DNA from: an uncultured Halanaerobiales bacterium
GTDB lineage: Bacteria > Bacillota > Halanaerobiia > Halanaerobiales > JADQBU01
Direction: 5' to 3'
Assembly: GCA_964427565.1 (NCBI GenBank)
Contig: CAYRVO010000001.1
Span: 1 to 26,962, forward strand
DNA: 26,962 nucleotides
The notes beneath the pieces were generated by a model. The model was not told the DNA's origin and did no database searches. It saw only the letters and a list, made by a program, of their open reading frames with translations. The translations under genes were made by a program, and so were the position numbers. Positions within the stretch are counted from its first letter, which is position 1. Each line of letters opens with the position of its first letter. Shown here one piece after another: positions 3,249 to 19,869 of this stretch.

Positions 3249-3390
3249 GTACTTGTATTTTAAAAATAGTGATCTCAAATATTCTATTTTCCTATCTACG
3301 AAAGTTATAACATTTGCATAAAATACCTTCCTGGTTAATAGATATTACTGAATGAATGTAAATTTATTTAACCCGGGAGGGAGAGACAGG

Positions 3391-4629: not shown

Positions 4630-5958
4630 ATGACAGTATTTAATGGTGAAAGATTACCGGTTGAGATTTTTCAAATAGATAAAGAAAGAATGGTAAATGG
4701 CTGGTATTCTGATGTTTATTTTCGTAATATAGCAAAATTACTTACTAGATTATCAAAGGAAGGATATACTTTTGAAGAAGAAGATATCGGCAATATAGAA
4801 GTTGAAATGCAGATATTCCCCAGGCGTAAGCCGTTTTGTATACTGGGTGGAGTTGATGAAGCTCTGGCAATTTTGCGGAATGCTACAGGTTACAGAAATA
4901 ATAAGGGAAATTATATTAGTACATTTAGTAATTTAGAGGTTGAAGCATGTCCGGATGGTATAAAGGCTTATTATCGAGGAAATCCCAAAAATGTTGAACC
5001 AGTAATGAAAATAAAGGGAAGGTATAGAGATTTTGCCATACTGGAAACACCTATTCTTGGTTCTTTAACAGAGGCCTCAAGGATAGCTACTAATGTTTTT
5101 GAAATCATTAAGGCTGCCCGAGGGAAAGATATTCTATTTTTCCCTGCGCGTTTTGCCCATTATAAACTACAGGCATTACATGGATATGCCTATTCCCTGG
5201 GAGTAAAGGCCTACAATACTCAGTACGGAACTAATAGTCACAGATATATCTCCACAGATGAGCAGGGTGCCTGGTGGGGAGGTAAAGGAGGGGGTACGAT
5301 AAGTCACTCCTATATAGCTGCTTTTTTAGGTAATACTGCTGAATCTATGTTACAGTTTTCACGTTTAATGCCTTTGAAGGTAAATAGGATTGCCCTGGTA
5401 GATTTCAAGAATGACTGTGTACGGACAAGTTTAAAAGTGTTGAAGGATATGTTCTATAAATATAATAAATTATTGAAAGATGGTAAAAATAAAGAAGCTG
5501 AAAAATATAAATTATATGGTATTAGGCCTGATACATCTTCAAATTTAAGGGATAAAAGTATTGAACCTTTGGGTGATAAAAAGCTGGACAATGGTGTTAA
5601 TGCACGTCTTATTTTTAAATTAAGAAAAAAAATTGATAATGCTTATAAAGAGTGGAATATAAATAAAGAAGATAAAAAAATTGCCTACCAGTACTGTCAT
5701 GATGTAAAGATTATTGCTACTGGTGGATTTGATCCCGAAAAGATAAATGAATTTGAGAAATCTCAGGTCCCTGTAGATGTCTATGGTGTAGGAAGCTGGC
5801 TTTTATCAAATAGTTCTCTAGAAGGGACAAGTAGTGATTTTACTGCTGATGTTGTCAGAGTAAAGAAAGATGGTAAATGGATAGATATGGCTAAATATGG
5901 AAGATGCCCCTGTGATAATAATAATTTAGAAAGAATACCTGATGATTATGGAAATTAG
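4630..5958 (+). CDS. pncB: Nicotinate phosphoribosyltransferase-like type II PRTase
   Basis: 442 aa; SDVYF, FFPARFAH, GTISHS (position of the phospho-His), ALVDF, GIRPDTS, IIATGGF, YGVGS. Family is clear; exact substrate is not. Confidence 0.72.
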   Translation: MTVFNGERLPVEIFQIDKERMVNGWYSDVYFRNIAKLLTRLSKEGYTFEEEDIGNIEVEMQIFPRRKPFCILGGVDEALAILRNATGYRNNKGNYISTFSNLEVEACPDGIKAYYRGNPKNVEPVMKIKGRYRDFAILETPILGSLTEASRIATNVFEIIKAARGKDILFFPARFAHYKLQALHGYAYSLGVKAYNTQYGTNSHRYISTDEQGAWWGGKGGGTISHSYIAAFLGNTAESMLQFSRLMPLKVNRIALVDFKNDCVRTSLKVLKDMFYKYNKLLKDGKNKEAEKYKLYGIRPDTSSNLRDKSIEPLGDKKLDNGVNARLIFKLRKKIDNAYKEWNINKEDKKIAYQYCHDVKIIATGGFDPEKINEFEKSQVPVDVYGVGSWLLSNSSLEGTSSDFTADVVRVKKDGKWIDMAKYGRCPCDNNNLERIPDDYGN

Positions 5959-6224: not shown

Positions 6225-6575
6225 TTGAATATTAATTATGCGCAAAAAGGTGATTTTCTTATATTTAGATTGTATGGTGAGTTGGACATGAATACAGTAC
6301 CGGATTTTAAAAAAAAGATTAATAAATTGAGAAAAGAAAAAAGGATAAATAATATAATAATAAATCTAAGTAAAATTAAATTTATTGACAGTACAGGTAT
6401 AGGTGCAATTCTTGGTAGATATAAAAAACTCAAGAAAAATAATGGCCAATTAGTATTAGTTGGGGTTAATAAAAGAGTAGAAAAAATTTTTGCTTTATCG
6501 GGTATTACTGGATTGATTCCAATTTATGATAAAGAAAAAACAGCAATTTCTGAGTATAATAAAGGAGGCAAATAA
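6225..6575 (+). CDS. spoIIAA: Anti-sigma F factor antagonist (STAS)
   Basis: 116 aa, TTG start with SD GGGAGG; RLYGELD, FIDSTGIGAILGRYK with the phospho-acceptor Ser retained. Confidence 0.93.
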   Translation: MNINYAQKGDFLIFRLYGELDMNTVPDFKKKINKLRKEKRINNIIINLSKIKFIDSTGIGAILGRYKKLKKNNGQLVLVGVNKRVEKIFALSGITGLIPIYDKEKTAISEYNKGGK

Positions 6576-6576
6576 T

Positions 6577-7017
6577 ATGGACAACCATGCACAATTAACA
6601 ATAGTAAGCAAAAGTAAGAATATAGGACTGGCCAGAATAGCTGTTTCTACATTTGCCTCAGAAATAGATTTCACCTTAAATGAGCTTGAGGAAATTAAGG
6701 TTGCAGTTTCAGAAGCTGTTACAAATAGTGTTATCCATGGTTATGCACATTCAAAGGGCAATATAATTATGAAGATGGAAATTGAAGATAAAAAATTGCA
6801 GGTTGTTGTAATTGATCATGGTATAGGAATAGCAGATTTGGAAGCTGTTTTGCAACCATCATATTCAACAAAAGAAGAACATATGGGGCTAGGTTTTGCT
6901 TTTATAGAATCCTTCATGGATGATTTTAAAGTTGAATCTGAGGAAGGTAAAGGAACTTCTGTTTATATGACAAAAATACCGGAACGTAACAACAGGGCAG
7001 AAAATCAGGGGGGCTAA
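6577..7017 (+). CDS. spoIIAB: Anti-sigma F factor (GHKL kinase)
   Basis: EIKVAVSEAVTNSVIHGY, DHGIGI, MGLGF, GKGT. True start is ATG 6577 after AAGGAGG, not 6526. Confidence 0.94.
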   Translation: MDNHAQLTIVSKSKNIGLARIAVSTFASEIDFTLNELEEIKVAVSEAVTNSVIHGYAHSKGNIIMKMEIEDKKLQVVVIDHGIGIADLEAVLQPSYSTKEEHMGLGFAFIESFMDDFKVESEEGKGTSVYMTKIPERNNRAENQGG

Positions 7018-7020
7018 AAG

Positions 7021-7791
7021 TTGGATAATAATATAATTGACCTCCCTGGAGTAAACTTATTAAAAGAAAAAGAAACAAAAAACTATATAAAAAAAGCACA
7101 GCATGGTAATAGTAAAGCTCTCAATAAGTTAATAAAACACAATTTACGACTTGTATTAAAAATGACTTACAGATTTAAAAACTCAAAATATGATCTCCAG
7201 GATTTATTTCAGATTGGGGTTATTGGCTTAATAAAAGCTGTTAAGGGTTTCGATTTAGAAAGAAATGTAAAATTTTCTACTTATGCTGTTTCCAGAATAC
7301 TGGGAGAAATAAAACTTTTTATGCGTGATGAAGGAATAATTAAGGTAAGTAGAAATTTGAAGAAAATTGGCAGAATAGTTAGAAAAAGAGAAGAAGAATA
7401 TAAAAAGAAATATGGTCGAGCACCAACTATTAATGAAATATCTGAAATAACAGGTTTTACGAAGCAAAAGATTATTAGAGCAATGGAAGCCAATAAATAT
7501 CCTACTTCTATTAATAAGGAAATTTATGAGAAAGAAGGACAAAAGCTTTATCTGGTAGATAGTATAGAGGATGAGGAAGCAAGAGATAAAATTGAAAATC
7601 TGGACCGTGTAACACTTTACAATTTGATACAAAATTTAGAAAAACGGGAAAGAAAGATTATATATTTGCGTTATTTTGAGGATAAAACTCAGGCAGAAAT
7701 AGGAAAAGAAATAGGAGTTTCTCAGGTACAGGTATCAAGATTAATAAAAAAAATATTGGCTGAGTTGCGTAAAAAGATAAATACCCAATAA
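7021..7791 (+). CDS. sigF: Sporulation sigma factor F
   Basis: 256 aa; DLFQIGVIGLIKAV, FSTYAV, DKTQAEIGKEIGVSQVQVSRL; third gene of spoIIA. Confidence 0.92.
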   Translation: MDNNIIDLPGVNLLKEKETKNYIKKAQHGNSKALNKLIKHNLRLVLKMTYRFKNSKYDLQDLFQIGVIGLIKAVKGFDLERNVKFSTYAVSRILGEIKLFMRDEGIIKVSRNLKKIGRIVRKREEEYKKKYGRAPTINEISEITGFTKQKIIRAMEANKYPTSINKEIYEKEGQKLYLVDSIEDEEARDKIENLDRVTLYNLIQNLEKRERKIIYLRYFEDKTQAEIGKEIGVSQVQVSRLIKKILAELRKKINTQ

Positions 7792-7806
7792 TGGGTATTT
7801 TTTTTT
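7779..7806 (+). terminator. Intrinsic terminator overlapping the sigF stop codon
   Basis: AAATACCCA-ataa-TGGGTATTT plus further T; the TAA stop sits in the loop. Confidence 0.85.
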
Positions 7807-7835
7807 GTATATTTTTAGACTTTAATAAAATAATA
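7807..7835 (+). promoter_or_regulatory. Possible sigmaG-type promoter for the small ORF/spoVA unit
   Basis: GTATA (7807-7811) - N17 - AATAATA (7829-7835). AT-rich context makes this weak. Confidence 0.3.
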
Positions 7836-7919: not shown

Positions 7920-7964
7920 TTATGAAAAATTTCTATTGTGAAATTTGCTTATTTAATAACAGAG

Positions 7965-8084
7965 GTGAAAAAAATCAAAAAATATATACTTTTGCTATTG
8001 TTATTTATTATTATGGCTGCTGTAGTGTATTTGATAGGTCTAAATTATGGTGAACATATTCCGGCAGATGCATTAAAAATATAA
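7965..8084 (+). CDS. Small single-pass membrane or secreted protein (36-39 aa)
   Basis: GTG 7965: (V/M)KKIKKYILLLLLFIIMAAVVYLIGLNYGEHIPADALKI*. Basic N-terminus, about 20 hydrophobic residues, SD-like AGAGGTGA. Below the ORF-track cut-off. Confidence 0.6.
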   Translation: MKKIKKYILLLLLFIIMAAVVYLIGLNYGEHIPADALKI

Positions 8085-8138: not shown

Positions 8139-8588
8139 GTGGATAATATAAATAAAACTCCAGATCAGTACCGGAGATTGATTAGTAAAATTAAACCACC
8201 TGTTCATAAGATCAAAAATATTATCAAAGCATTTATTATAGGTGGACTAATCTGTGTTGTAGGTCAATCTTTTTGGAATATATATAAACAATTAAATTTA
8301 TCTCAAGATAATGCCGGAGTAATGGCTACAATTACAATGATATTTCTGGGGGGCTTGTTTACCGGGCTGGGTGTCTATGATGAACTTGGACAGTTTGCCG
8401 GTGCAGGTTCAATAGTTCCCATAACCGGTTTTGCTAATGCTATGGTCTCTCCAGCTATGGAATATAAACAGGAAGGTTTAATTTCTGGACTGGGAACAAA
8501 ATTATTTAATGTTGCTGGTCCGGTTATTACTTATGGGATGGTATCTGCATTTATTATAGGCTTAGTAAAAGTTGTACTGGCGGTGTAA
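8139..8588 (+). CDS. spoVAC: Stage V sporulation protein AC
   Basis: 149 aa, GTG start; AFIIGGLICVVGQ, GVYDELGQFAGAGSIVPITGFANAM, AGPVITYG. Confidence 0.95.
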   Translation: MDNINKTPDQYRRLISKIKPPVHKIKNIIKAFIIGGLICVVGQSFWNIYKQLNLSQDNAGVMATITMIFLGGLFTGLGVYDELGQFAGAGSIVPITGFANAMVSPAMEYKQEGLISGLGTKLFNVAGPVITYGMVSAFIIGLVKVVLAV

Positions 8589-8590
8589 GG

Positions 8591-9606
8591 ATGGCAAAAA
8601 ATATAGAGGGTCAAAGTTTAACATTTGAAACTAGACCAGGTGTTTTTGGTTATGGTACAGTTGGTGGTCCTGAGGAAGGAAAAAGTCCCCTCAGTAATAA
8701 ATTTGATTTAATTTATGAGGACGCACGTTGTGGAGAGAAAACCTGGGAACTGGGCGAAATGAAGATGGTCAAAAAAGCTATTGACTATGCTCTTGGCAGA
8801 GCAAGCCTGGATAAAAATAGTATTGATATTATTCTGGGGGGCGATCTTTTAAATCAGATAGTTGTTTCGAATTTTACAGCACGTAATTTAAGTATTCCTT
8901 TTCTTGGATTTTATGGAGCCTGTTCTACCATGATAGAGGTATTGCTTGTTGGTAGTTTACTTATTGATGGTAATTATGCCGATAATATTATGGGCTTTAG
9001 TTCCAGTCATTATCAAACTGCCGAAAGACAATTTAGAACACCTTTAGAATATGGAGATCAATATCCGCCAACAAAACAATGGACAATTACAGGTGCAGGT
9101 GCATATATTCTTGACCAAAATAGAGGAGAAGTTGTAATAACTCAGGGCACTATTGGTAAGGTTATTGATCTGGGAATTAATGATAGTAATGATCTGGGCT
9201 CTGCAATGGCTCCGGCTGCAGCTGATACGATATTACAACATTTCAGTGATCTTGATCGAGGCCCTCAGGACTATGACCTGATAATTACTGGTGATTTAGG
9301 AAGAGTGGGTAAAGATGTACTTAGGGCTTTGATGCAGGAAAAGAAATGTGATCCCGGTGATAAATTAAAAGATTGTGGTTCAATGATCCTAAAAATAAAA
9401 AAAAATATGGTGCTGGTGGTAGTGGTTGTGCAGCAACAGCTCTTGCTCTGGGTAGTATATTTATTCCCAAATTGATAGAAGGGAATATTAGAAGGATTCT
9501 TGTGGTAGGTACAGGTGCCCTTATGAATCCCTTAATATTGAACCAGAATGAAACAATTCCTGCTATAGCTCATGCGGTTGTTATTGAAAGGAGTATGAAT
9601 GGGTAA
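8591..9606 (+). pseudogene. spoVAD: Stage V sporulation protein AD, split by a -1 frameshift near 9389-9405
   Basis: ORF 8591-9475 carries GGDLLNQ, GACST, AERQFR..EYG, LGSAMAPAAA, TGDLG, DCG. The AGGSGC...ILVVGTGALM..ETIPAIAHAV C-terminus lies in ORF 9373-9606. One added base gives a 338-aa protein. Confidence 0.9.
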
Positions 9607-9952
9607 TTACTTTACAGCTTTTTTAGTTGGGGGTTTTATCTGTGCTATTAGTCAAATAATACTTGATAATACTAAATATACTCCAGCACATTTATTGGTA
9701 GGATTAGTTATAGCTGGTTCTTTACTGACCGGTCTCGGTTATTATCAACCATTAATTGAATTTGCAGGTGCGGGAGCTACAATACCGGTAGCAAATTTTG
9801 GACATATACTTACTAAAGGTGTATTACTGGAAGCCAAAAAAGATGGTTTGTTAGGTCTTTTTAAAGGTGTATTTGAAATTGCTAGTGCTGGTATTAGTGC
9901 TTCAATTATTATAGCTTTTTTTATTGCTCTTATTTTTGATCCGAAGAGGTGA
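9599..9952 (+). CDS. spoVAE: Stage V sporulation protein AE (SpoVAEb type)
   Basis: 117 aa; AFLVGGFICAISQ, TPAH, YQPLIEFAGAGATIPVANFGH. Confidence 0.92.
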   Translation: MGNYFTAFLVGGFICAISQIILDNTKYTPAHLLVGLVIAGSLLTGLGYYQPLIEFAGAGATIPVANFGHILTKGVLLEAKKDGLLGLFKGVFEIASAGISASIIIAFFIALIFDPKR

Positions 9953-11439
9953 AATATTTGCAAAAAAGATCCCTGAGTAAAAATCTAGATAAAAATATGG
10001 ATATATTAAAAAAGGAATTGGGAGCAGATGAAAGTTTTGATGTATTGACTCGTGGTTTTTATATAGGTCGTAAAAAAGCAGGTCTTTTATTTATTGATGG
10101 TTTTATAAAAGATGATATAATACATGTTCTTAGGGAATTAATGAATAGTGAAAGCAAAAATATTAGTGTAAATACCCTCAAAAAAATTATTCAAAAAAGA
10201 TTACCATATTATGAAATAAGTATTGTCAATAGTATGGAGGAGATAATTGATGAAGTATTAACAGGCCCTCAGGCATTACTAATAGATGGCTTAAAACAGG
10301 CTATAATTATTGATGCCCGACAGTGGTTAAGCCGTTCTCCGGAAGAACCTGAACTTGAAAAGGCAACCCGGGGTCCGGCAGATGGTTTTGTAGAGACAAT
10401 GCTTTTTAATGTTAATGCCGTGAGAAGAAGAATTAGGGATGTTAAGTTCAGGGCAGAGGTCTTAAAAGTAGGTAAAAGGTCTAAAAATGATATAGCCTTA
10501 TTATATATAAAGGATATAATTAATCCCGATCTTGTTAAAAATATAAAAGATAAATTAAATAATGTAGATATTGATGGTATACCTCTTGCTGATAAATCTG
10601 TAGAAGAAATAATTACAGGTGGTACTTTAAATCCTTTACCACTGGTTAGATATACAGAAAGGCCAGACAATGTTACTGCCCATATACTTGAAGGCCATCT
10701 GGCGATTATTGTAGACAACTCACCGACAGCTTTAATTTTGCCAGCACCATTTTTTGCCCATATTCAGACCCTGGAATTGTATAGGAAGAGTACAATAGTC
10801 GGTACATATTTATCTCTTACTAGAATATTGGCTATATTTGTCTCTGTTTTTTTACCGGCGATTTGGCTACTGGCTGCTACCAACCAGGATTTACTCCCAG
10901 AATATCTTGCTTTTATAGGGCCCAAACAGGAGAGTACAATTGGACTGGGTATTCAATTTATTTTAGCAAGTCTTGGTATTGATTTAATTAGAATGGCTTC
11001 CATACAGGTACCAGGGACAATGGCAACTTCTCTAAGTTTAATAGGGGCTTTAATACTGGGTGATTTTGCTGTGAAAGTTGGTCTCTTTTCTCCAGAAGTT
11101 ATTTTATATATGGCAATTGCTGCTATAGGAAACTTTGCTATTCCGGGTTATGAGCTGGCATTAGTTTTAAAAATGATAAGATTTGCATTTTTGATTTCAG
11201 TAATCATTGCTAATATATGGGGCTTTATTATTGTGCTATTACTGTTATTAATCTGGATGGCATTTACAAAGACATTTGGTGTTTATTATCTCTGGCCGTT
11301 GATTCCTTTCAATTTTCAGGGATTAAAATCTTTTTTTGTTACAGAGACTGTACTGGATGTATCCCATATTAGGCCGGAAGCTTATAATGTACAAGATAAA
11401 GATAGGGCTGTAAAGGATGAAGATGAGAATAAGAAATAA
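9949..11439 (+). CDS. spoVAF: SpoVAF / GerA-family spore membrane protein
   Basis: 496 aa, GTG start overlapping spoVAE; RSPEEPELEKATRGPADGFVET, RYTERPD, LEGH...VDNSP, C-terminal TM bundle. Confidence 0.9.
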   Translation: MKYLQKRSLSKNLDKNMDILKKELGADESFDVLTRGFYIGRKKAGLLFIDGFIKDDIIHVLRELMNSESKNISVNTLKKIIQKRLPYYEISIVNSMEEIIDEVLTGPQALLIDGLKQAIIIDARQWLSRSPEEPELEKATRGPADGFVETMLFNVNAVRRRIRDVKFRAEVLKVGKRSKNDIALLYIKDIINPDLVKNIKDKLNNVDIDGIPLADKSVEEIITGGTLNPLPLVRYTERPDNVTAHILEGHLAIIVDNSPTALILPAPFFAHIQTLELYRKSTIVGTYLSLTRILAIFVSVFLPAIWLLAATNQDLLPEYLAFIGPKQESTIGLGIQFILASLGIDLIRMASIQVPGTMATSLSLIGALILGDFAVKVGLFSPEVILYMAIAAIGNFAIPGYELALVLKMIRFAFLISVIIANIWGFIIVLLLLLIWMAFTKTFGVYYLWPLIPFNFQGLKSFFVTETVLDVSHIRPEAYNVQDKDRAVKDEDENKK

Positions 11440-11459
11440 ATAGATAAGTGGTGGTATAA

Positions 11460-12476
11460 ATGAAAACTAGAATTGGAATACCCAGATCTCTTTTTTATTA
11501 CTACTATTACCCGGGATTAAAAAAATTTTTTCAGGACCTGGGAGTACAGGTTGTTCTTTCTCCCCAAACAAATCGCAGAATAATTGATAAGGGAGTTAAA
11601 AAAGCAGTAGATGATATTTGTTTACCAATTAAAGCATATTTTGGTCATATTGGTGAATTGTTAGATAAAGTTGATTATATATTTGCTCCGAGGTTTATTA
11701 GTCTGGGTAAAAAAAATTTTGTTTGTCCCAAATTTATGGGATTACCAGATATGTTAAGGGCTGCATTTAATAATAAAAATCTGCCCCCGCTGATAGATCC
11801 TGATATAGATCTTAGAAAAGGTATATTTCCTATTCGCAGGATTGCACACTTAATTGGTAAAAGATTAAAAGCAGGCTATTTAAGGGTTGAGTGGGCATTA
11901 TGGAGAGCAATTTATAGACAGAAACAATTTGAGAAGATAAAAAAGTCAGGTCATACGACTGCAGAAAGCATGAAAATATTAGATGATCAAAAAAATATAA
12001 AAAATACAAAAAATAAATCATTAGATTTAGAGTCTGGGCAGAACAAAAATGATCTTGAAATTGCTGTACTGGGACATTCATATTTAATTTATGATGATTA
12101 TTTAAGTATGGGTTTGATTAAACATTTGAAAGATAGGGGGATAAAAATATTAACACATGACATGATTCAAAATAATATACTGGAAATGAATGCTGTTAAA
12201 TATAACAAAAAATTATTCTGGTATTATAATCGCCATATTCTTGGGGCTGCAAATTATTTTATTAATGCTAAACAAGATGAAATTGATGGTTTAATACAGG
12301 TGGATGCTTTTGGTTGTGGACCGGATTCTATTATTAATGAACTTGTAAAATTGAGGTGTAAGGAGAATGATATTTCATTATTAAATGTTAACCTGGATGA
12401 ACATACAGGTAAAGCAGGTATTCATACAAGGCTGGAAGCTTTTACTGATCTGCTAATAAGGCGGAAAAGTGGATGA
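11460..12476 (+). CDS. DUF2229-type / 2-hydroxyacyl-CoA dehydratase-like Fe-S subunit A
   Basis: 338 aa; IGIPRSL, ICLPIKAYFGH, FVCPKFMGLPD, FGCGPD, DEHTGKAG..TRLEAF. Confidence 0.75.
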   Translation: MKTRIGIPRSLFYYYYYPGLKKFFQDLGVQVVLSPQTNRRIIDKGVKKAVDDICLPIKAYFGHIGELLDKVDYIFAPRFISLGKKNFVCPKFMGLPDMLRAAFNNKNLPPLIDPDIDLRKGIFPIRRIAHLIGKRLKAGYLRVEWALWRAIYRQKQFEKIKKSGHTTAESMKILDDQKNIKNTKNKSLDLESGQNKNDLEIAVLGHSYLIYDDYLSMGLIKHLKDRGIKILTHDMIQNNILEMNAVKYNKKLFWYYNRHILGAANYFINAKQDEIDGLIQVDAFGCGPDSIINELVKLRCKENDISLLNVNLDEHTGKAGIHTRLEAFTDLLIRRKSG

Positions 12477-13558
12477 AAAAAATAACTTTTCCTCATATGG
12501 GTAATTTATATATTGCAGCTGAAACATTTTTTAAGGAACTGGGTTATGAGGTAATAGTACCACCTAAAAACTCAAGGAAAACACTTGATCTAGGAATGAA
12601 ATACAGTCCTGAATTTGCATGTTTACCTTTAAAAATAAATATAGGTAATTTTATTCAGGCCCTTAAAAAAGGTGCAGATACAATTGTTATGGGTGGTGGT
12701 GTTGGTCCCTGTCGCTTTGGATATTATTGCGAAGTGCAGAAAGGAATATTAAATGATCTGGGTTATGATTTTCAGATGATTAGCCTGGAACCAGAAATCT
12801 TGAAAACATTTAATAATATCAGGCAAGTAATGGGTGGAGTTCCCTGGACAAAAATTTATGGATCCGGAAAACTGGCCTGGAACAAAATAGTTGCTATAGA
12901 TGAAATTCATAAACAGGTTTTAAAAAGTAGGGGTCAAGAGCAAAAAGAAGGCACAATTAATGAAATTTATAATAAATTTCTGGAACGAATTCAGGATATA
13001 TGGTCAATAAGAGGTATTAAAGATATAAAAAATGAATATTATAAATTGATTAAAGAAGCAGAGGGTAATTATAAACGGGGTATAGAAATTAAAGTTGGTA
13101 TTGTTGGTGAGATATATGTAGTAATAGAACCTTTTACAAATTTAAATATCGAACAGAAGCTGGGTGATCTAGGTGTTACTGTTGAAAAAGAGTTATATAT
13201 TAGTCATTGGGTTAGACAATTCTTAAAAATGGATAATAATCACAAAGAAGTAAAAGAAGCCGCAGCGCCTTATTTAAGAGGAACTGTTGGTGGGCATGGT
13301 CTTGATTCAGTAGGTAATGCTGTCTTATATGCTAAAAAGGGTTTTGATGGAGTAATTCAAGTAGCACCATTTACCTGTATGCCAGAAATAGTGGCCCAAT
13401 CTATATTACCTGAAGTAAATGATAATGAGGATATTACAGTATTATCTTTGATATTTGATGAACATACGGGTGAAGCAGGTTTAAAAACAAGGCTGGAGGC
13501 TTTTGTGGATTTGTTAGCAAGAAAAAAGAAATTAAAGGGAGCTGTAAGTAGTGGATAA
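12473..13558 (+). CDS. 2-hydroxyacyl-CoA dehydratase-like Fe-S subunit B (CoA protein activase-associated)
   Basis: 361 aa; TFPHMG, ACLPLK, GPCRFG, VGIVGEIY, PFTCMPE, DEHTGEAG..TRLEAF. Confidence 0.75.
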   Translation: MKKITFPHMGNLYIAAETFFKELGYEVIVPPKNSRKTLDLGMKYSPEFACLPLKINIGNFIQALKKGADTIVMGGGVGPCRFGYYCEVQKGILNDLGYDFQMISLEPEILKTFNNIRQVMGGVPWTKIYGSGKLAWNKIVAIDEIHKQVLKSRGQEQKEGTINEIYNKFLERIQDIWSIRGIKDIKNEYYKLIKEAEGNYKRGIEIKVGIVGEIYVVIEPFTNLNIEQKLGDLGVTVEKELYISHWVRQFLKMDNNHKEVKEAAAPYLRGTVGGHGLDSVGNAVLYAKKGFDGVIQVAPFTCMPEIVAQSILPEVNDNEDITVLSLIFDEHTGEAGLKTRLEAFVDLLARKKKLKGAVSSG

Positions 13559-14519
13559 TTACTATCTGGGTATTGATGTTGGCTCAGTAAGTATTAATAT
13601 TGTTTTGATTGATGAATTTAAAAATTTATTTGACAAAAAGTATTTGCGAACAAGAGGAGAACCAATAAGGGTTATCAAAGAAGGATTAAAATATTTACAG
13701 GAAAAGCATCCCGATATTAATATAAAGGGGGTTGGAACTACAGGAAGTGGTAGAAATCTGGCCGGGGTTATGGTAGGAGCAGATACTATAAAAAATGAAA
13801 TTACAGCACATGCAGTTGCAGCAGCACATATAAATTCTGATCTAAAAACCGTACTTGAAATAGGTGGTCAGGATTCAAAAATAATTATTATCAGAGATGG
13901 TGTAGCAGTAGATTTTGCCATGAATACAGTCTGTGCTGCTGGTACCGGCTCTTTTCTTGACCAACAGGCAATGAGATTAGGAATACCAATTGAGGAGTTT
14001 GGAAGTATTGCTCTTAATGCAGAAACTTCAGTGCGCATCGCTGGACGATGTGCTGTATTTGCTGAATCCGATATGATACATAAACAGCAAATGGGACATG
14101 ATATACCAGAGATTATTGCTGGTCTTTGTGATGCCCTTGTTCGTAATTATTTAAATAATGTTGGTAAAGGTAAAGACATTCAACCACCAGTTGTTTTTCA
14201 AGGGGGAGTTGCTGCAAACGAAGGTATAAGGGATTCCTTTAGCCGGGCTTTAAATACGAAAATAACTGTACCACAGAATTATGATGTAATGGGTGCTATA
14301 GGAGCAGGTATTTTGGCTAAAGAAATCATTCAGGAAGAAAAGCGTTCTACGAATTTTAAAGGTTTTGATATAACCGATTTTGATTACAGGGCTGAAAGCT
14401 ATGAATGCACTGGTTGTTCAAATCACTGTGAAATTATAAATATTTATCAAAATGGAGAATTAATTGCTCGCTGGGGAGGTAGGTGTAGAAAAAATGAATT
14501 AAAAACAGTTTCTAATTAA
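13551..14519 (+). CDS. Acyl-CoA dehydratase activase (HgdC/BcrA-D-like ASKHA ATPase, [4Fe-4S])
   Basis: 322 aa; LGIDVGS, EIGGQDSK, MNTVCAAGTGSFL, RCAVF, QGGVAAN, extra C-terminal CTGCSNHC...GRC. Confidence 0.88.
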   Translation: MDNYYLGIDVGSVSINIVLIDEFKNLFDKKYLRTRGEPIRVIKEGLKYLQEKHPDINIKGVGTTGSGRNLAGVMVGADTIKNEITAHAVAAAHINSDLKTVLEIGGQDSKIIIIRDGVAVDFAMNTVCAAGTGSFLDQQAMRLGIPIEEFGSIALNAETSVRIAGRCAVFAESDMIHKQQMGHDIPEIIAGLCDALVRNYLNNVGKGKDIQPPVVFQGGVAANEGIRDSFSRALNTKITVPQNYDVMGAIGAGILAKEIIQEEKRSTNFKGFDITDFDYRAESYECTGCSNHCEIINIYQNGELIARWGGRCRKNELKTVSN

Positions 14520-14521
14520 GG

Positions 14522-14550
14522 TTGTTTTTAGTTGAAGAAAAATATATAAT
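14522..14550 (+). promoter_or_regulatory. sigmaA-type promoter for the C26-to-scpB unit
   Basis: TTGTTT - N17 - TATAAT (14545-14550), followed by SD AAGGAGG. Confidence 0.55.
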
Positions 14551-14574: not shown

Positions 14575-15264
14575 ATGTCTGTAATTATAGGCATTTCAAT
14601 GGGATATAAGAGTAATAATGAAAAAAAGCTGGAAATAGACAAAAATTATTTGCAGGTAATTAAAGAAGTAGGTGGAATACCTGTTATCTTAAATCCTTTT
14701 ATAAACGAAAAATATTTTAATAAAATTAATATAGATGGAATATTATTGACAGGTGGAGGCGATGTAGACCCTCGTTATTTTGGTGATAATCCACATAAAA
14801 AAATACGGAGAATAGATCCTGTACGCGATAATTTTGAGATAAAATTATGTAAATGGGCTATAAAGTCAAGACTACCTGTATTAGCAATTTGCAGGGGTAT
14901 ACAGGTTTTAAATATAGCCTATGGGGGAACAATTATTCAGCATTTAGATGGAGATATTATCAAACATGAACAGGAAAGTCCCGGCTGGCACCCATCTCAT
15001 AAGATTAATATTAGTGATAATAATATATTAGCAGATATCTATGATAAAAGGGAAATATATGTTAATAGTTTTCATCATCAAGCTGTTTTAAAAACGGGTA
15101 ATGGTTTAGAAATTGTAGCCCGGGCTGTGGATGGAATTATAGAATCTATAGCTAGCAGTGATAAATACTTTATTATTGGAGTTCAGTGGCATCCCGAATT
15201 AATGTACAAAAAAAATAGCAAACATTTAAAATTATTTAAAAGATTTATTAAAAATTGTGAGTGA
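14575..15264 (+). CDS. Gamma-glutamyl hydrolase-like class I glutamine amidotransferase (peptidase C26, PuuD-like)
   Basis: 229 aa; LTGGGDVDP, LAICRGIQ (catalytic Cys), VNSFHHQAV, GVQWHPE (His-Glu). Confidence 0.88.
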   Translation: MSVIIGISMGYKSNNEKKLEIDKNYLQVIKEVGGIPVILNPFINEKYFNKINIDGILLTGGGDVDPRYFGDNPHKKIRRIDPVRDNFEIKLCKWAIKSRLPVLAICRGIQVLNIAYGGTIIQHLDGDIIKHEQESPGWHPSHKINISDNNILADIYDKREIYVNSFHHQAVLKTGNGLEIVARAVDGIIESIASSDKYFIIGVQWHPELMYKKNSKHLKLFKRFIKNCE

Positions 15265-15278
15265 AGTGGTGTTTATAG

Positions 15279-16976
15279 ATGAGTATAGATGATATACTGA
15301 AAAAAGATGTAATAACAGTTAATCCCGAAACTAAATTTGGCCGAGTAGAGAAAATACTGACTGAAAATAATTTGACAGCATTAGCTGTTACAGTTGACGA
15401 AAAGATCAGGGGGATTATATCTATGTCAGATATATTAAAAATAAAGCCCCATGATTATGATGGTTTAGCGATTAAAAGATATATGCAAAAGCATTTTCCG
15501 GTTATTAAGAATGATACAAAAATCAAGCAGGCGGCTCAAATTATGAATAATTATAATTTAAGTATTTTACCTGTAGTTGAGAAAGAAAAATTTCTAGGGC
15601 TGATTTTTAAAAAAGATATAAAAAATTATTCTAACAGTTATAGCTATACTTTTTATGGTAATTGCTTAATAAAAATAAATAAAAAGATCTTTAATATAGA
15701 ACAAAAATTAAAAAATTTACCTCTTAGATATATTAATGTAATTAACAAAGTAAGTGCTATCTTTAATAAATACAATATAAAAATATATATAGTTGGGGGA
15801 TTAGTTAGAGATATTCTTCTTAATAAGGAAAACAGGGATCTTGATTTTATTTATGAAGGAATCATTGAGCCAGAAAAATTAAGAGAAATAATAGTGGAAA
15901 TAGTAGAAAGACTCAATACAAACTGGGAATGTAACATATCTTTTAAAACAAACACATCTTTTAGAACAGCATCTATTCATTTTGAACAGGGTTTAAACCT
16001 TGATTTTGCAGCTTTAAGGAGAGAATATTATACATCTCCCGGTTCACTTCCTGAAGTTAAAGTAGCAAATCTGCAAGAAGATATTTTAAGAAGAGATTTT
16101 ACAATTAATACATTAGTTTTGGATATTAATCCACTTAACCGGGGTGATGTATATGATTATATCGGGGGCAGAAAGGATTTGAAAAAGGGATTAATACGGG
16201 CTCTTCATTGTTATAGTTTTTTAGATGATCCAACGCGAATTATAAGAGGTATCAGACAGTCTATAGAGTTAAATTTTGATATTGAAGAGCAAACTAGAAA
16301 GTTAATAGAAGATGCACTCTTATATGGTAAATTTCCAGACTTGACAGAAGAAAGGGTATTTAAAGAGTTGAAACTTCTTTTTGACAGGCAAATAAATAAT
16401 AAATTTATAAAATTATTGTCAGATTTACCTGTTTTTAATCTTCTGGCAATTAATATTAATATGAATAAGAAAATTGTTGCTAAATTATATAGACTTGAGG
16501 ATATTCTTGCATATTTTTTAGAGAGGGATTATAATGTTAAAGACTGGTTATTGCGGTTGGCTGTTATTATTCCTGAAAGTCCTGCTGTAAAACTTGAAAC
16601 CTGGAATATAAGTAAAGAAAACAAAGAAATACTATCTTTTCACGATTATGATAAATATATGAAAAAGTTATATTCAGCAGAAAAATCATCTCAGTTAGCT
16701 GATGTTTTAAATGACTTAAAACTGGAGAAAGTTATTTTATTAATGGTTGAAGATGAAAATATAGTTGATAAAGTAAAATATTATTATGAAAAGTTAGTTA
16801 AGATAGAACTGGCTATAAATGGTAATGATTTGCTTAAACTTGGACTTAAACCTGGTCCGGAGATAAAATATATTCTCAAAGAAGTCTGGAAGGCAAAGGT
16901 AAATGGTAAGCTAAATAATTACAGGAATGAAATAAACTATGCAAAAAAATTAATCAGAGATAAGGAAAGGAGCTAA
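15279..16976 (+). CDS. CBS-domain tRNA nucleotidyltransferase (CCA- or A-adding; class II)
   Basis: 565 aa; N-terminal CBS pair, VGGLVRDILL, RDLDF, RREYY..PGSLPEV, RRDFTIN, FLDDPTRIIR, ERVFKE, C-terminal INGNDLLKLGLKPGP. Confidence 0.88.
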   Translation: MSIDDILKKDVITVNPETKFGRVEKILTENNLTALAVTVDEKIRGIISMSDILKIKPHDYDGLAIKRYMQKHFPVIKNDTKIKQAAQIMNNYNLSILPVVEKEKFLGLIFKKDIKNYSNSYSYTFYGNCLIKINKKIFNIEQKLKNLPLRYINVINKVSAIFNKYNIKIYIVGGLVRDILLNKENRDLDFIYEGIIEPEKLREIIVEIVERLNTNWECNISFKTNTSFRTASIHFEQGLNLDFAALRREYYTSPGSLPEVKVANLQEDILRRDFTINTLVLDINPLNRGDVYDYIGGRKDLKKGLIRALHCYSFLDDPTRIIRGIRQSIELNFDIEEQTRKLIEDALLYGKFPDLTEERVFKELKLLFDRQINNKFIKLLSDLPVFNLLAININMNKKIVAKLYRLEDILAYFLERDYNVKDWLLRLAVIIPESPAVKLETWNISKENKEILSFHDYDKYMKKLYSAEKSSQLADVLNDLKLEKVILLMVEDENIVDKVKYYYEKLVKIELAINGNDLLKLGLKPGPEIKYILKEVWKAKVNGKLNNYRNEINYAKKLIRDKERS

Positions 16977-16980
16977 AATT

Positions 16981-17622
16981 ATGCCTTCAATACAGGAAAT
17001 TATCTTATTACTTCCTATATTATTATTTTCATTGTCAATACATGAATTTTCACATGGTTTTATGTCTTATAAATTGGGAGACCCAACTCCAAAAGTAAAT
17101 GGTAGACTGACATTAAATCCTTTAGCTCATCTTGATTTAATAGGTAGTCTTGTTTTGATTATTACCCGGAGAATAGGCTGGGCAAAACCTGTTCCTATAA
17201 ATCCTCGTTATTATAAAAACCCACGCAAAGGGATGATGTATGTTGGATTTGCTGGTCCCGGGGCTAATATAGTTATGGCAATAATTTTATCCTTGATTAT
17301 CAGGGTATTCTTGATTTTTAGTAATACTTCTTTAAACATGGTTTATAGTGGTTATTATTCGAATTTAACACAGACTATTGCCCGTTTCTTTCTACTGGCA
17401 ATTATTATCAACCTTAGTCTGGCAGTATTTAATTTAATCCCTGTACCACCACTTGATGGCTCAAAAATATTACGTGGATTTTTACCTCCTCGTTTTGATA
17501 AGTATTTTTATAAGCTAGAAGGTCCACTAGGGATGGTAGTATTGTTAATACTGGCTTATACAGGTATATTATGGAAAATAATCAGTCCGGTTGTTAATTT
17601 ATTTTTGAATATATTAATATAG
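16981..17622 (+). CDS. Site-2 protease family (M50) membrane metalloprotease
   Basis: 213 aa; HEFSH, GRLTLNPLAHLD, AGPGAN, FNLIPVPPLDG. Confidence 0.92.
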   Translation: MPSIQEIILLLPILLFSLSIHEFSHGFMSYKLGDPTPKVNGRLTLNPLAHLDLIGSLVLIITRRIGWAKPVPINPRYYKNPRKGMMYVGFAGPGANIVMAIILSLIIRVFLIFSNTSLNMVYSGYYSNLTQTIARFFLLAIIINLSLAVFNLIPVPPLDGSKILRGFLPPRFDKYFYKLEGPLGMVVLLILAYTGILWKIISPVVNLFLNILI

Positions 17623-17632
17623 GAGCTAAAAT

Positions 17633-18385
17633 ATGGAGTATGAGATTGATTTAGATATATTTCAGGGGCCACTGGAACTATTATATCAATTAATAAAAAA
17701 GAATAAGATCGAAATAAATGAGGTTTCTCTGGCTGAAATAACAGATCAGTATTTATCTTATTTACAGGAATTAAAGAGTTTTGACCTTGATTTGGCCAGT
17801 CAGTTTATGCTTATTGCAACAGAACTAATAGAATTGAAAACTGAAAATCTTTTGCCGGTTAAGTCCAAAAAAGAAAAAAGTAGTAATGAAAAGGATCTAG
17901 TTAATAGACTAAAGGAATATCAGAAATTTAAAAAAGCTGCCCATATATTAAGAGAAAAAAGAAAGAAAGCTGCAAAATCATATACTCGTAGGGTAGATAT
18001 AACAGAAAAATATGATGAAAACTATGAATTGCAAATAAAAAAAGATGGGAATGAGTTAGCTGAAATTTATCTGAAAACAATAAAATCCTCATCAACAACT
18101 AATGATAATCAAATAAAAAAAGAAGAAAAATTAGATATAGATTACATTAATGAAGATGATATTAATGTTAATGATAAAATTAATTATATAATGAATAATC
18201 TAAGAGATAGGAATTCAGGAATTAAATTTAAAGAAATTATTGATAATAATAGTAATTGTCTGGAGATTATTGTTACTTTACTGGCTATGCTGGAATTGAT
18301 TCATAGAAAGAAAATAAAGATTGAACAGGACAAATTATTTTCAGAGATAAAAATTTATATTGTTAATGAGAAGGTGTTTTCATGA
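17633..18385 (+). CDS. scpA: Segregation and condensation protein A (kleisin)
   Basis: 250 aa; FQGPLELLYQLI, ITDQYL, C-terminal LLAMLEL..QDKLFSEI. Confidence 0.93.
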   Translation: MEYEIDLDIFQGPLELLYQLIKKNKIEINEVSLAEITDQYLSYLQELKSFDLDLASQFMLIATELIELKTENLLPVKSKKEKSSNEKDLVNRLKEYQKFKKAAHILREKRKKAAKSYTRRVDITEKYDENYELQIKKDGNELAEIYLKTIKSSSTTNDNQIKKEEKLDIDYINEDDINVNDKINYIMNNLRDRNSGIKFKEIIDNNSNCLEIIVTLLAMLELIHRKKIKIEQDKLFSEIKIYIVNEKVFS

Positions 18386-18894
18386 ATGAAAAATATATAG
18401 CTATAATTGAAGCTTTATTATTTACAGCTCAGGATATGATATCTTTAACAGAGATTGCAGATGTTATAGGTTTATCCAGAGTAGAGACTGAAGAATATAT
18501 ATCTATATTGAGTGATAGATACAGGGAGAAGGCTCATGGATTATTGCTTAAAGAATACAATAATAATTATATTTTAACAACTAAGCCCTTTTTTAGTTCA
18601 TATATAGAAGATATGCATAATATAAAAAATAAAGTTAGTTTGAGTAAAGCTGCTCTAGAAACACTGGCAATAATAGCCTATAAACAGCCTGTAACTAGAT
18701 CAGAGATTGAAGAAATAAGAGGAGTAAAGGCTGAAAAGACGCTTTTGACACTGGGTAAATATAATCTTATTAAAGAATTAGGGCGTAAAGATACTATTGG
18801 TAATCCTATTGTTTATGGTACAAGTGAAAAATTTCTTGAATATTTTAATTTAAAAAATTTATCCAAATTACCGGAAATAGAAGAAACTGATTAA
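18382..18894 (+). CDS. scpB: Segregation and condensation protein B
   Basis: 170 aa; IEALLF, LSKAALETLAIIAYKQPVTRSEIEEIRGV, YGTSEKFLEYF. Confidence 0.95.
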   Translation: MNEKYIAIIEALLFTAQDMISLTEIADVIGLSRVETEEYISILSDRYREKAHGLLLKEYNNNYILTTKPFFSSYIEDMHNIKNKVSLSKAALETLAIIAYKQPVTRSEIEEIRGVKAEKTLLTLGKYNLIKELGRKDTIGNPIVYGTSEKFLEYFNLKNLSKLPEIEETD

Positions 18895-19001: not shown

Positions 19002-19505
19002 TTGATACTTATCTTATTAATCTCTTTTTTTATTTTTATAGCTTTATTATTTATTCCTGTAAGTGTAAAGATAGTGTATAGTTATAATCAAAACAAAAAT
19101 TATTATAAAATAAAAATAAAAATATTTAAAATTATTACTATACCATTATCCAGGGAAGAAGATAAACTAAAAGCTGATATAAAAATAAAAAATTACAAAA
19201 AATATTCACAAATTATCTTAAAAAGATTAAATATAAACTGGAAATTTTTATATCTTGAAAGCAAATATGGTTTTGGCAATCCAGCTTATACAGCGATTTC
19301 TTATGGCATCATCTGGAGTATTTTGGGAACATTAGTTACTGCTTTTGATATAAAAAAACCGGTTATAAAGATAAGCTCAGAATGCAATGAAAAAATTTTT
19401 ACATTACATATTGAAAGTATATTTTCTCTATATATAGGTAATATTATTTATACAGGATTTTTTATTTTAAAGGAGGAAATATGTAATGGCAGAACAAAAT
19501 ATTGA
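19002..19505 (+). CDS. DUF2953 / YtfI-like membrane-anchored protein
   Basis: 167 aa, TTG start; N-terminal TM, YGFGNPAYTAISYGIIWS; directly upstream of ytfJ. Confidence 0.75.
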   Translation: MILILLISFFIFIALLFIPVSVKIVYSYNQNKNYYKIKIKIFKIITIPLSREEDKLKADIKIKNYKKYSQIILKRLNINWKFLYLESKYGFGNPAYTAISYGIIWSILGTLVTAFDIKKPVIKISSECNEKIFTLHIESIFSLYIGNIIYTGFFILKEEICNGRTKY

Positions 19506-19869
19506 AAAATTACTGGATACAGCTATGAAAAATATTGAATCTATGGTTGATGTAACAACAATAGTAGGTGAACCGGTAGAAACTATGGAAGGAAGTGTAA
19601 TAATACCTGTTTCACGTGTCAGTTTTGGTTTTGCTGCCGGGGGAGGAGAATTTCATAATAAAGCAGAAGCAGATAGAGAAAACCCGCCATTTGCCGGTGG
19701 TAGTGGAGCAGGGGTTATGATTAATCCCGTAGCTTTTCTAGTGGTTACAAATGATGAAATAAGGTTATTGCCGGCAAAAAATAATGCGGTAGCAGAAAGA
19801 CTGGTAAATATTGCTCCAGAATTAGTTAAAGAGATAAAAAATTTAATAAAAAATAAAACCAGCATGTGA
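19486..19869 (+). CDS. ytfJ: Sporulation protein YtfJ / GerW
   Basis: 127 aa; MVDVTTIVGEPV, IIPVSRVSFGFAAGGGEF, FAGGSGAGV..NPVAFLVV. Confidence 0.93.
   Translation: MAEQNIEKLLDTAMKNIESMVDVTTIVGEPVETMEGSVIIPVSRVSFGFAAGGGEFHNKAEADRENPPFAGGSGAGVMINPVAFLVVTNDEIRLLPAKNNAVAERLVNIAPELVKEIKNLIKNKTSM

Follow-up and report, generated by a model that had tools for sequence, protein, structure and literature searches.

A gene trio behind spoVAF in an uncultured Halanaerobiales bacterium probably encodes a forespore-expressed, PlsA-like Fe-S reductase

Knowledge of sporulation genes rests on Bacillus subtilis and a few clostridia. I analysed a stretch of 26,962 nucleotides (nt) from an uncultured Halanaerobiales bacterium (contig CAYRVO010000001.1 of assembly GCA_964427565.1), in which three overlapping genes follow the spoVA operon. 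The whole stretch is called the window, and the three genes are designated trioA, trioB, and trioC, or together the trio. The best overall explanation, to which I give a probability of roughly 55%, is that the trio encodes a split ATP-driven Fe-S reductase of the PlsA/PlsR/Ger class, which is made in the forespore, injects electrons, and has a membrane-lipid ester as its likeliest candidate substrate. The two parts of this reading differ in strength. It is probable that the trio is a PlsA-like reductase expressed in the forespore, and a lipid as its substrate is a tentative proposal made by analogy. The trio is conserved beside forespore genes, or under the same kind of promoter, in many anaerobic spore-formers, and this marks an undescribed sporulation function.

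All of the genes described here lie on the + strand. trioA (11460-12476) encodes a Red1-type catalytic subunit, trioB (12473-13558) encodes a Red2-type (PlsR-like) catalytic subunit, and trioC (13551-14519) encodes an ASKHA ATPase activase. As the original prediction stated, the three genes start only 20 nt past spoVAF and overlap one another. The overlaps measure 4 nt at the trioA/trioB junction and 8 nt at the trioB/trioC junction. The gap between spoVAF and trioA (11440-11459, atagataagtggtggtataa) holds a ribosome-binding site, GGTGG, and nothing else. There is no hairpin, and a promoter would not fit, which agrees with the claim that neither a terminator nor a promoter is visible there. 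A sigmaA promoter that had been placed at 14522 cannot be upheld, since its -35 box matches at only three of six positions and such matches occur at chance level: 38 sigma-70-like hexamer pairs were found in the window against 36.5 expected from shuffles, which makes scanning of this AT-rich DNA uninformative.

Between 7800 and 14519, no terminator-like site was found apart from weak intragenic matches. The only strong terminator-like site near the trio is a hairpin at 7779-7800 (a 9-bp stem followed by a T-run), which resembles an intrinsic terminator, closes the spoIIAA-spoIIAB-sigF operon (6225-7791), and forms the upstream boundary of the transcription unit. Just behind it lies GTATA-N17-AATAATA (7807-7835), the sole sigmaF/sigmaG-like motif on the + strand between sigF and trioA and, as a motif, the candidate promoter of the whole unit. 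In Halothermothrix orenii, too, this motif follows sigF at the corresponding place (locus L086, position 1912), and it is again the only one. A single motif just past the sigF terminator in both genomes fits one transcription unit that runs through trioC. From the sequence, I infer that a small open reading frame (ORF), spoVAC-spoVAD-spoVAE-spoVAF, and trioABC are co-transcribed from a sigmaF/G-type promoter at ~7807-7835.

What kind of enzyme does the trio encode? PF09989 (DUF2229) matches TrioA with 183.5 bits and TrioB with 61.4 bits (cut-off 29.4). PF06050 (HGD-D) covers only the C-terminal part of each protein, and its scores (21.4 bits for TrioA and 23.8 bits for TrioB) do not reach the gathering cut-off of 28.4. 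The plasmalogen synthase PlsA/PlsR and Ger have DUF2229 as their signature domain (PMC13159169, PMC9702350, PMC12838417), and it is also found in fused proteins of Listeria and Paraclostridium. The Cys motifs named in the original prediction, ICLP/VCPK/GCGP in TrioA and ACLP/PCRF/TCMP in TrioB, are present, far from chance, and invariant in homologues. The TrioA residues C54 (11619-11621), C89 (11724-11726), and C286 (12315-12317) are invariant in 60 homologues, and the TrioB residues C50 (12620-12622), C80 (12710-12712), and C302 (13376-13378) are invariant in 59 orthologues. By analogy, the three Cys residues of each catalytic subunit are putative [4Fe-4S] ligands.

The third gene is indeed an ASKHA activase gene. 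TrioC has 322 residues and matches PF01869 (BcrAD_BadFG) with 153 bits and TIGR00241 with 183 bits. Cys128 and Cys167, at the positions of the bridging cluster, are invariant. In addition, TrioC has a C-terminal module of ~60 residues with the pattern C286-x2-C289-x3-C293...C312 (14406-14486), whose four Cys residues are invariant in 60 orthologues and which is modelled as a small three-stranded sheet with a predicted local distance difference test (pLDDT) value of ~85. This module is not present in HadI, HgdC, MbdQ, or DCCP-R, with which only ~260 residues align. Rather, it aligns with the Cys residues of the linker between Act2 and Red1 of the Listeria fused protein. In Thermoanaerobacterium and Thermoanaerobacter (L083, 8001-10051; L017, 2252-4314; L039, 10001-12045), trioA and trioB occur with no activase gene next to them. 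A trioC homologue with 65-67% identity is found in Thermoanaerobacter and Caldanaerobacter (P0231, P0219) and is presumably encoded elsewhere in the genome.

The comparison with Pls proteins was made by BLASTP against the Listeria and Paraclostridium fused homologues, and the Clostridium perfringens PlsA/PlsR and Ger were compared through their descriptions. The Listeria protein (1475 residues, from a chromosome fragment mislabelled in a plasmid collection) contains two PF01869 domains and PF09989. The trio is colinear with its modules Act1-Act2-Red1-Red2. TrioC aligns with residues 319-634 (30% identity) and also with residues 3-252, TrioA with residues 670-971 (27% identity), and TrioB with residues 1030-1238 (25% identity). 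The identity of TrioC to the Paraclostridium homologue is 40%. The Red1 modules of the fused proteins keep 31-34 of the 56 near-invariant TrioA residues, including the CxPxK...GH motif, and the six Cys residues of the reductase and the 4-Cys module of the activase are common to the trio and the fused proteins. As judged from these sequence comparisons, the trio is related to PlsA/PlsR/Ger, distantly and in split form, and is not an acyl-CoA dehydratase.

Is the trio then a plasmalogen synthase? The domain string of Ger is BBDHDDH, that is, two PF01869 domains followed by PF09989 and PF06050 pieces (PMC13159169). Tandem activase domains fused to Red1 (the BBD architecture) were not found in the trio, where one activase gene follows both of the reductase genes. 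The set of Act, Act, Red1, and Red2 with three Cys residues per Red is present, but the two activase copies would be a homodimer of one product. Because of the missing BBD fusion and the low identity, the trio is not filed here as a plasmalogen synthase. The wider family is large, with 4270 clusters at 50% identity (profile search, E<=1e-3). Among the best 150 representatives, most are split forms of 300-380 residues, and about ten are A-B fusions of ~700 residues. Four loci (L008, L009, L011, and L018), which include metagenome-assembled genomes (MAGs) labelled NPL-UPA2, have a minimal A-C form in which one DUF2229 subunit gene is followed by the activase gene and no trioB is present. Judged by this form, the catalytic core of some lineages may be a homodimer.

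The neighbourhood of the trio was compared across genomes. The loci come from one scan of GTDB species genomes and are the best-scoring 80 of at least 579, a sample biased to close relatives. Linkage was scored by tblastn with the window proteins, and 68 loci had enough upstream sequence to be informative. In 41 of these 68 loci, spoVAE or spoVAF lies directly upstream of the trio on the same strand, so that the linkage to spoVA seen in the window extends to many genomes. The linked loci belong to several classes of Bacillota and are distributed over Halanaerobiales, Desulfotomaculia, Syntrophomonadia, Moorella, Tepidanaerobacter, Thermincola, and Dethiobacter. Among cultured species, Halonatronum saccharophilum (L045) has the linked arrangement with a gap of 19 nt, Moorella mulderi (L055) has it with overlapping genes, and it is also found in relatives of Desulfotomaculum/Pelotomaculum. 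Five further loci have the trio in the sigF neighbourhood, and in one case it stands directly behind sigF. The complete genome of H. orenii has exactly the gene order of the window, with a gap of 6 nt. In 26 related loci, spoVAF is placed after spoVAE. The gaps between spoVA and the trio in the 41 linked loci range from -11 to 666 nt (11 loci with 30 nt or less, 12 with 31-100 nt, 12 with 101-250 nt, and six with longer gaps). The trio had been described as fused to the spoVA operon. This holds for the window and for about a quarter of the linked loci, while elsewhere a terminator, a separate forespore-type promoter, or both lie in between. Among the top 120 matches for TrioA and TrioC, Halanaerobium is missing and Halothermothrix, Halocella, and others are present, which is only suggestive.

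In a neighbour-joining tree, the unlinked loci fall into a paralogous clade, named X1 here, and orthologues that have lost the linkage. The unlinked orthologues comprise a Clostridia/Tissierellia-type clade, Thermoanaerobacter(ium), and a few others. The X1 members (L013, L014, L021, L022, L024, L047, L052, L060, L067, L068, L077, L078, and L080) are never beside spoVA. Some X1 members share a contig (L015/L052) or a MAG (L010/L068 and L019/L077) with a linked copy, and the clade could be a vegetative isoform. The neighbours of X1 vary and include genes for Fur, TetR, DUF3786, a KamA-like radical SAM protein, and selAB. Three X1 loci (L024, L060, and L068) have an extra B-type gene after the activase gene (A-B-C-B').

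The region from sigF through spoVA to scpAB is an ancient conserved block, and linkage alone could reflect inheritance rather than function. Thus, separate regulatory signals were sought. The 44 loci with a gap were searched 25-80 nt upstream of trioA with the relaxed motif G[ACT]AT[AG]-N17/18-[CA]A[TA]N[ACT]TA. This sigmaF/G-like motif is present in 14 of the 44 loci, against 29 of the 506 upstream regions that served as controls within these loci (Fisher p=8e-7, an optimistic value because the motif was written after the sequences had been inspected). On the opposite strand it occurs in two of the 44, and shuffles gave a mean of 0.8. The canonical B. subtilis sigmaG pattern matches in four of 44 against five of 506 (p=0.003). 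The control hits gather at the dacF-like gene (8/25), spoVAC (3/23), the ytfI-like gene (3/12), and the dodecin gene upstream of spoVAC (5/7). This concentration at known forespore genes validates the pattern.

Six unlinked orthologues also have the motif (L032, L073, L050, L039, L017, and L023), and in four loci (L040, L044, L069, and L043) it is placed after a terminator. Textbook instances, GTATA-N18-CATAATA, occur in L032, L073, L040, and L044. In contrast, the motif is present in none of the 13 X1 loci, and the X1 loci L068 and L060 have a sigmaA-like sequence upstream, TTGACG-N17-TATGATAAT. These motifs suggest that the trio depends on sigmaG or sigmaF.

RNA data were considered for a Thermoanaerobacter orthologue (L039) that is unlinked to spoVA and has the motif upstream. 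Four runs of vegetative RNA sequencing from pure cultures of three organisms were used, with contig depth as a crude measure of expression. The depth over trioA is mostly 0-7 (maximum 23), versus 13-540 over the upstream flank and 79-330 over the downstream genes. The levels differ 10- to 100-fold, and they do so reproducibly. This near-silence is the opposite of what is expected of a housekeeping lipid enzyme. In the same runs, a separate vegetative transcript starts inside trioB (L039, 11220-11340) and runs into a downstream rodZ-like gene, which implies an internal promoter within the coding sequence. Just upstream of trioA (L039, 9640-9900), there is a very abundant short element with a depth of 1000-48000, which is represented at several genomic places and is probably a tRNA or small RNA cluster. 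In Tepidanaerobacter metatranscriptomes, sigF, spoVAC/D, and the trioA/B junction are at a similar low depth, which is compatible with co-expression and not decisive. Taken together, the forespore co-regulation proposed in the original prediction gains support from the conserved spoVA linkage, the sigmaF/G-like motifs at unlinked orthologues, and the vegetative near-silence of the Thermoanaerobacter orthologue.

Could the trio instead be a housekeeping synthase of ether lipids or plasmalogens in vegetative cells, which lies next to spoVA only as part of the ancient block dacF-spoIIA-spoVA-lysA-...-scpAB and is read through incidentally? The membership of the trio in the PlsA/PlsR/Ger family would suit such a role, as would the fact that related lineages have plasmalogens and alkyl ethers in their vegetative cells, the synteny of the whole neighbourhood, including unrelated genes such as those for M50 peptidase, scpAB, and lysA, and the 13 orthologous loci that are unlinked. 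However, the gaps of 6-20 nt without terminators in Halanaerobiales argue for co-transcription with the forespore operon, and forespore-type motifs accompany unlinked orthologues and copies that lie past terminators (L040/L044/L069). The paralogue X1, with sigmaA-like rather than sigmaG-like upstream sequence, is a separate copy that accompanies the trio in a MAG or on a contig, and vegetative Thermoanaerobacter cells give almost no trioA signal. I therefore regard a housekeeping synthase as unlikely.

A second possibility is a genuine enzyme of the 2-hydroxyacyl-CoA dehydratase or benzoyl-CoA reductase (BCR) type, whose forespore substrate would be a soluble CoA thioester. The heterodimer with an activase and the 3-Cys motifs fit this architecture. 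The fold fits as well. The AlphaFold2 model of TrioA (pLDDT 91.8) was compared with the PDB by Foldseek, and its top matches are exclusively DCCP, HadB/C, BzdN/O, and MbdO/N, with E values from 7e-9 to 3e-5, template modelling (TM) scores of ~0.5, and identities of 9-14%. The HadBC entries 3o3m_B and 3o3n_B have E values of 3e-8 to 9e-8 and TM scores of 0.49-0.57. The sequence of TrioC matches HadI, HgdC, MbdQ, and DCCP-R in the PDB (E ~1e-35 for 4eht and 1hux), and its model resembles MbdQ, HadI, and HgdC with TM scores of 0.85-0.90 over only ~260 residues and with 30-34% identity in structural alignments. Thus, the original prediction of an ATP-driven Fe-S radical enzyme with an ASKHA activase stands at the superfamily level, as the fold matches of TrioA and TrioC indicate, and does not extend to the closest family. 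The comparison set chosen at that time was HgdABC, FldBCI, HadBCI, and class I BCR, but PlsA/PlsR and Ger, which are ester reductases of the DUF2229 type, are the nearest characterised relatives.

Several results speak against a CoA-thioester enzyme. PF06050 stays below its cut-off in both subunits, while DUF2229 scores 183/61 bits. No NCBIfam model, of a dehydratase, a reductase, or any other kind, matches TrioA or TrioB, and the benz_CoA_red models score far under their cut-offs (96 vs 578, 77 vs 380, and 73 vs 313). Direct sequence searches of the PDB with TrioA and TrioB singly gave no match. A profile of 60 TrioA sequences reaches only the C-terminal 70 residues, and there DCCP (7yyl_C, E 3.7e-5) ranks above HadC (E 0.09). 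As had been noted for the window, no gene for a CoA-transferase, a ligase, or an acyl-CoA dehydrogenase is linked to the trio; these genes and those for a 2-hydroxyacid dehydrogenase are absent from the window and not recurrent in the 80 related loci, and a second ATPase subunit is not linked either. A CoA-thioester enzyme has only a small chance of being correct. The original prediction gave the substrate as unknown. With lipid ester reductases as the nearest characterised family, the substrate is no longer wholly blank, and there are better guesses than a CoA thioester.

It is also conceivable that the trio is a DCCP-like, promiscuous reductase of small molecules with low potential, whose task would be to protect or prepare the cytoplasm of the forespore; an oxidant or an unusual metabolite could be what it reduces. 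DCCP is the top match of TrioA both by profile and by structure (E 6.7e-9), and DCCP-R is among the matches of the activase. The structural match has a TM score of only ~0.5 at 12-14% identity, and DCCP uses six Cys residues in one chain for its [8Fe-9S] cluster, where the trio has three invariant Cys residues per chain. Moreover, DUF2229 and the 4-Cys module of the activase tie the trio to PlsA-type proteins. The odds of a DCCP-like role are low. An alternative dipicolinate-forming enzyme that replaces DpaAB or EtfA and works with the SpoVA channel was set aside as very improbable, because dipicolinate synthase is an oxidative function of the mother cell (sigmaK) and the trio has forespore-type signals, belongs to a family of ATP-driven reductases, and has no relative known to act on dihydrodipicolinate, even though genes of the dipicolinate transporter are adjacent and some clostridia are without both DpaAB and EtfAB (bioRxiv 10.1101/2022.02.25.481979).

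If the trio is a forespore-made PlsA-like reductase, how may it work? By analogy with HgdC, HadI, and DCCP-R, TrioC would form a homodimer in which a [4Fe-4S] cluster bridges the monomers via Cys128 and Cys167, with the 4-Cys module as an extra metal-binding module. Reduced ferredoxin or flavodoxin would pass an electron to the bridging cluster. ATP binding and hydrolysis would then let TrioC dock on a TrioA/TrioB heterodimer and drive the electron into the 3-Cys clusters with a very low potential. Each catalytic subunit would hold one such [4Fe-4S] cluster, whose unique iron may bind the carbonyl or hydroxyl oxygen of the substrate and allow a ketyl-type reduction and dehydration. The electron injection and the cluster types are proposed here by analogy with the characterised systems. 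As the distal part of the forespore spoVA unit, the trio would be made in the developing forespore along with the dipicolinate channel.

The chemistry may be the reduction of an ester or carbonyl followed by dehydration, and the likeliest substrate would be the sn-1 acyl ester of membrane glycerolipids. Such a reaction would yield ether lipids of the alkenyl or alkyl kind, located in the inner membrane of the forespore. The family relationship and one type of neighbour make a membrane glycerolipid ester a candidate. In two Clostridia-type genomes, a PLD-family gene of the cardiolipin-synthase type (two HKD motifs and N-terminal membrane helices) lies directly upstream of trioA (L032, 8438-9940; L073) and ends ~60 nt before the GTATA-N18-CATAATA motif and trioA. 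This gene is the only hint at lipids among the neighbours. An attractive but doubtful extension is that anaerobic endospore-formers have a dedicated forespore isoform of an ether-lipid synthase (plasmalogen or alkyl ether), which is co-expressed with the SpoVA channel and etherifies the inner forespore membrane. If this were true, the etherified membrane could contribute to extreme impermeability, immobility, and resistance to hydrolysis, heat, alkali, and oxygen, and Bacillus would be without the function since the enzyme is oxygen-sensitive.

Some observations weigh against a forespore lipid reductase. The identity of the trio to the Listeria PlsA-type protein is 25-30%, below the 41-55% identity to C. 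perfringens PlsA/PlsR that functional Pls proteins have (PMC12838417), and Listeria Red2 deviates at about half of the positions that are invariant in TrioB. The substrate may therefore well be another one. Plasmalogens and ether lipids are already made by related lineages in their vegetative state (PMC8982180, PMC8359318), which leaves a spore-specific need uncertain. The linkage is lost at 13 orthologous loci, and the neighbours at unlinked loci are heterogeneous, mostly with no connection to lipids (Fur, TetR, DUF3786, a lysine-aminomutase-like radical SAM protein, selAB, glutamine synthetase, and ABC transporters). The sampling bias, the possible inheritance of the block, and the late wording of the relaxed motif mentioned above belong here as well, and the sigmaF/G dependence is based on motifs. 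A search for transcripts of the host found the window only in low-coverage DNA runs from soil metagenomes.

The other features of the window are as follows. The GC content is ~31%, that of a low-GC member of Halanaerobiales, and the nearest homologues are in MAGs of Halanaerobiaceae and Halothermotrichaceae. The spoIIAA-spoIIAB-sigF operon is preceded by a dacF-like carboxypeptidase gene (3352-4599) and an ORF of 442 codons with a weak QRPTase_N match (4630-5958). The spoVA unit appears to begin with the small ORF (7938-8084), which encodes a single-pass membrane peptide of ~40 residues ending in ...IPADALKI. The spoVAC gene (8139-8588) matches PF03862 and TIGR02838 (183.7 bits), spoVAE (9599-9952), of the spoVAEB type, matches TIGR02839 (145 bits), and spoVAF (9949-11439), for a GerA-family membrane protein, matches PF03323 (E 1.4e-145). 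Downstream of the trio are genes for a C26 peptidase (gamma-glutamyl peptidase; 14575-15264), a CBS-CCA nucleotidyltransferase (15279-16976), and an M50 peptidase (16981-17622), followed by scpA and scpB (17633-18894), ytfI/ytfJ-like genes (19002-19869), and a dacB-like gene (19947-21209).

This start of the spoVA unit with the small ORF appears to hold for Halanaerobiales. The small ORF follows the sigF terminator and the sigmaF/G-like motif and precedes spoVAC, and an ORF of 41 codons at the same position in H. orenii (L086, 1985-2110) ends in ...IPTDALKI, so that the C-terminus IP[AT]DALKI is kept. In H. orenii and several other loci, a dodecin (PF07311) gene is added there, which is the one with the forespore-type motif upstream in five of seven loci. 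The C26 peptidase gene begins 55 nt past the trio with no terminator between them. This gene and the ORF of 442 codons are singletons among the 80 related loci, and they are lineage-specific insertions that interrupt a block conserved in its other parts. Relatives have lysA behind the trio, just as lysA follows spoVAF in B. subtilis.

The spoVAD gene (8591-~9603) is frameshifted, and PF07451 covers it at profile positions 3-267 of 329 only. Compared with the SpoVAD of L001 and L005, the frameshift lies in the A-run ctaaaaataaaaaaaaatatgg at ~9394-9404. The listed ORF stops at 9475 after a nonsense stretch (VLVVVVVQQQLLL), and the C-terminal third, with the conserved SpoVAD C-terminus (KKKYGAGGSGCAATA ... 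AHAVVIERSMNG*), resumes in another frame and continues to ~9603. If spoVAD truly reaches ~9603, the operon is more compact than listed. Public contigs break at this homopolymer, and the depth is only 3-5x. The frameshift is likely an assembly error; it may also be a real pseudogene or a slippage site.

The trio genes carry a generic public annotation, "acyl-CoA dehydratase activase(-related)". In the literature searched, no paper connects the trio with spoVA or sporulation, and the text of a comparative study of sporulation gene sets is without the words "dehydratase" and "activase". Thus, a developmental context is newly supported for these genes, and they do not yet form a new category. Among the loci examined, this generically annotated family was sorted into an orthologous group with spoVA linkage and a paralogue of vegetative appearance. 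For spore development, an ATP-consuming Fe-S reductase of low potential made in the forespore would add a new biochemical activity. Should its substrate be a membrane lipid, it would offer a testable handle on a long-standing question, the impermeability and stability of the inner spore membrane and would bear on how dormant spores of strict anaerobes are protected from oxygen and hydrolysis.

The systems known so far share different parts of the trio. HadBC-HadI, HgdAB-HgdC, and FldBC-FldI are likewise heterodimers of homologous subunits with 3-Cys [4Fe-4S] sites and an ATP-dependent activator that has a bridging cluster, and TrioC superposes on HadI (4eht) and HgdC (1hux) with a TM score of 0.85. 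The trio differs from them in that its PF06050 scores stay under the threshold, no CoA-transferase or dehydrogenase gene is linked, its activase has a 60-residue 4-Cys module that is missing from HadI and HgdC, and its sequence identity to HadBC is 12-13%. The class I BCRs (BzdNOPQ, MbdONPQ, and BcrABCD) share the fold superfamily of both the catalytic and the ATPase parts (8s02, 9g87, and 9gai), but have two different ATPase subunits, PF06050-type catalytic subunits, and genes in clusters for aromatic degradation, all of which the trio lacks. DCCP/DCCP-R of Carboxydothermus hydrogenoformans (PDB 6eno and 7yyl) is a two-component system of an ATPase and a reductase like the trio, although DCCP is a homodimer and the trio would be a heterodimer.

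PlsA/PlsR and Ger are closer. PlsA/PlsR is encoded by CPE1194-CPE1195 in C. perfringens and is one fused protein in Enterococcus, Lactococcus, Bifidobacterium, and Listeria. Like the trio, it has DUF2229 with a weak C-terminal HGD-D match, two paralogous reductase modules with three conserved Cys residues each, and a BcrAD_BadFG-type activase followed by a CxxCxxxC...C module. In contrast to the PlsA type with its two fused activase domains, the trio consists of three polypeptides in the order Red1-Red2-Act with one activase gene. An O2-related TetR-type regulator reportedly adjoins pls in facultative anaerobes, whereas the regulation of the trio is tied to the forespore. Ger ("modified PlsA"), known from Thermotoga maritima (Tmari_0479) and Desulfatibacillum alkenivorans, has the same Pfam vocabulary as the trio, works only anaerobically, and comes from lineages of anaerobes and thermophiles that make ether lipids (PMC13159169). 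Unlike the trio, Ger is a single fused polypeptide, and it makes saturated sn-1 alkyl ethers in vegetative membranes.

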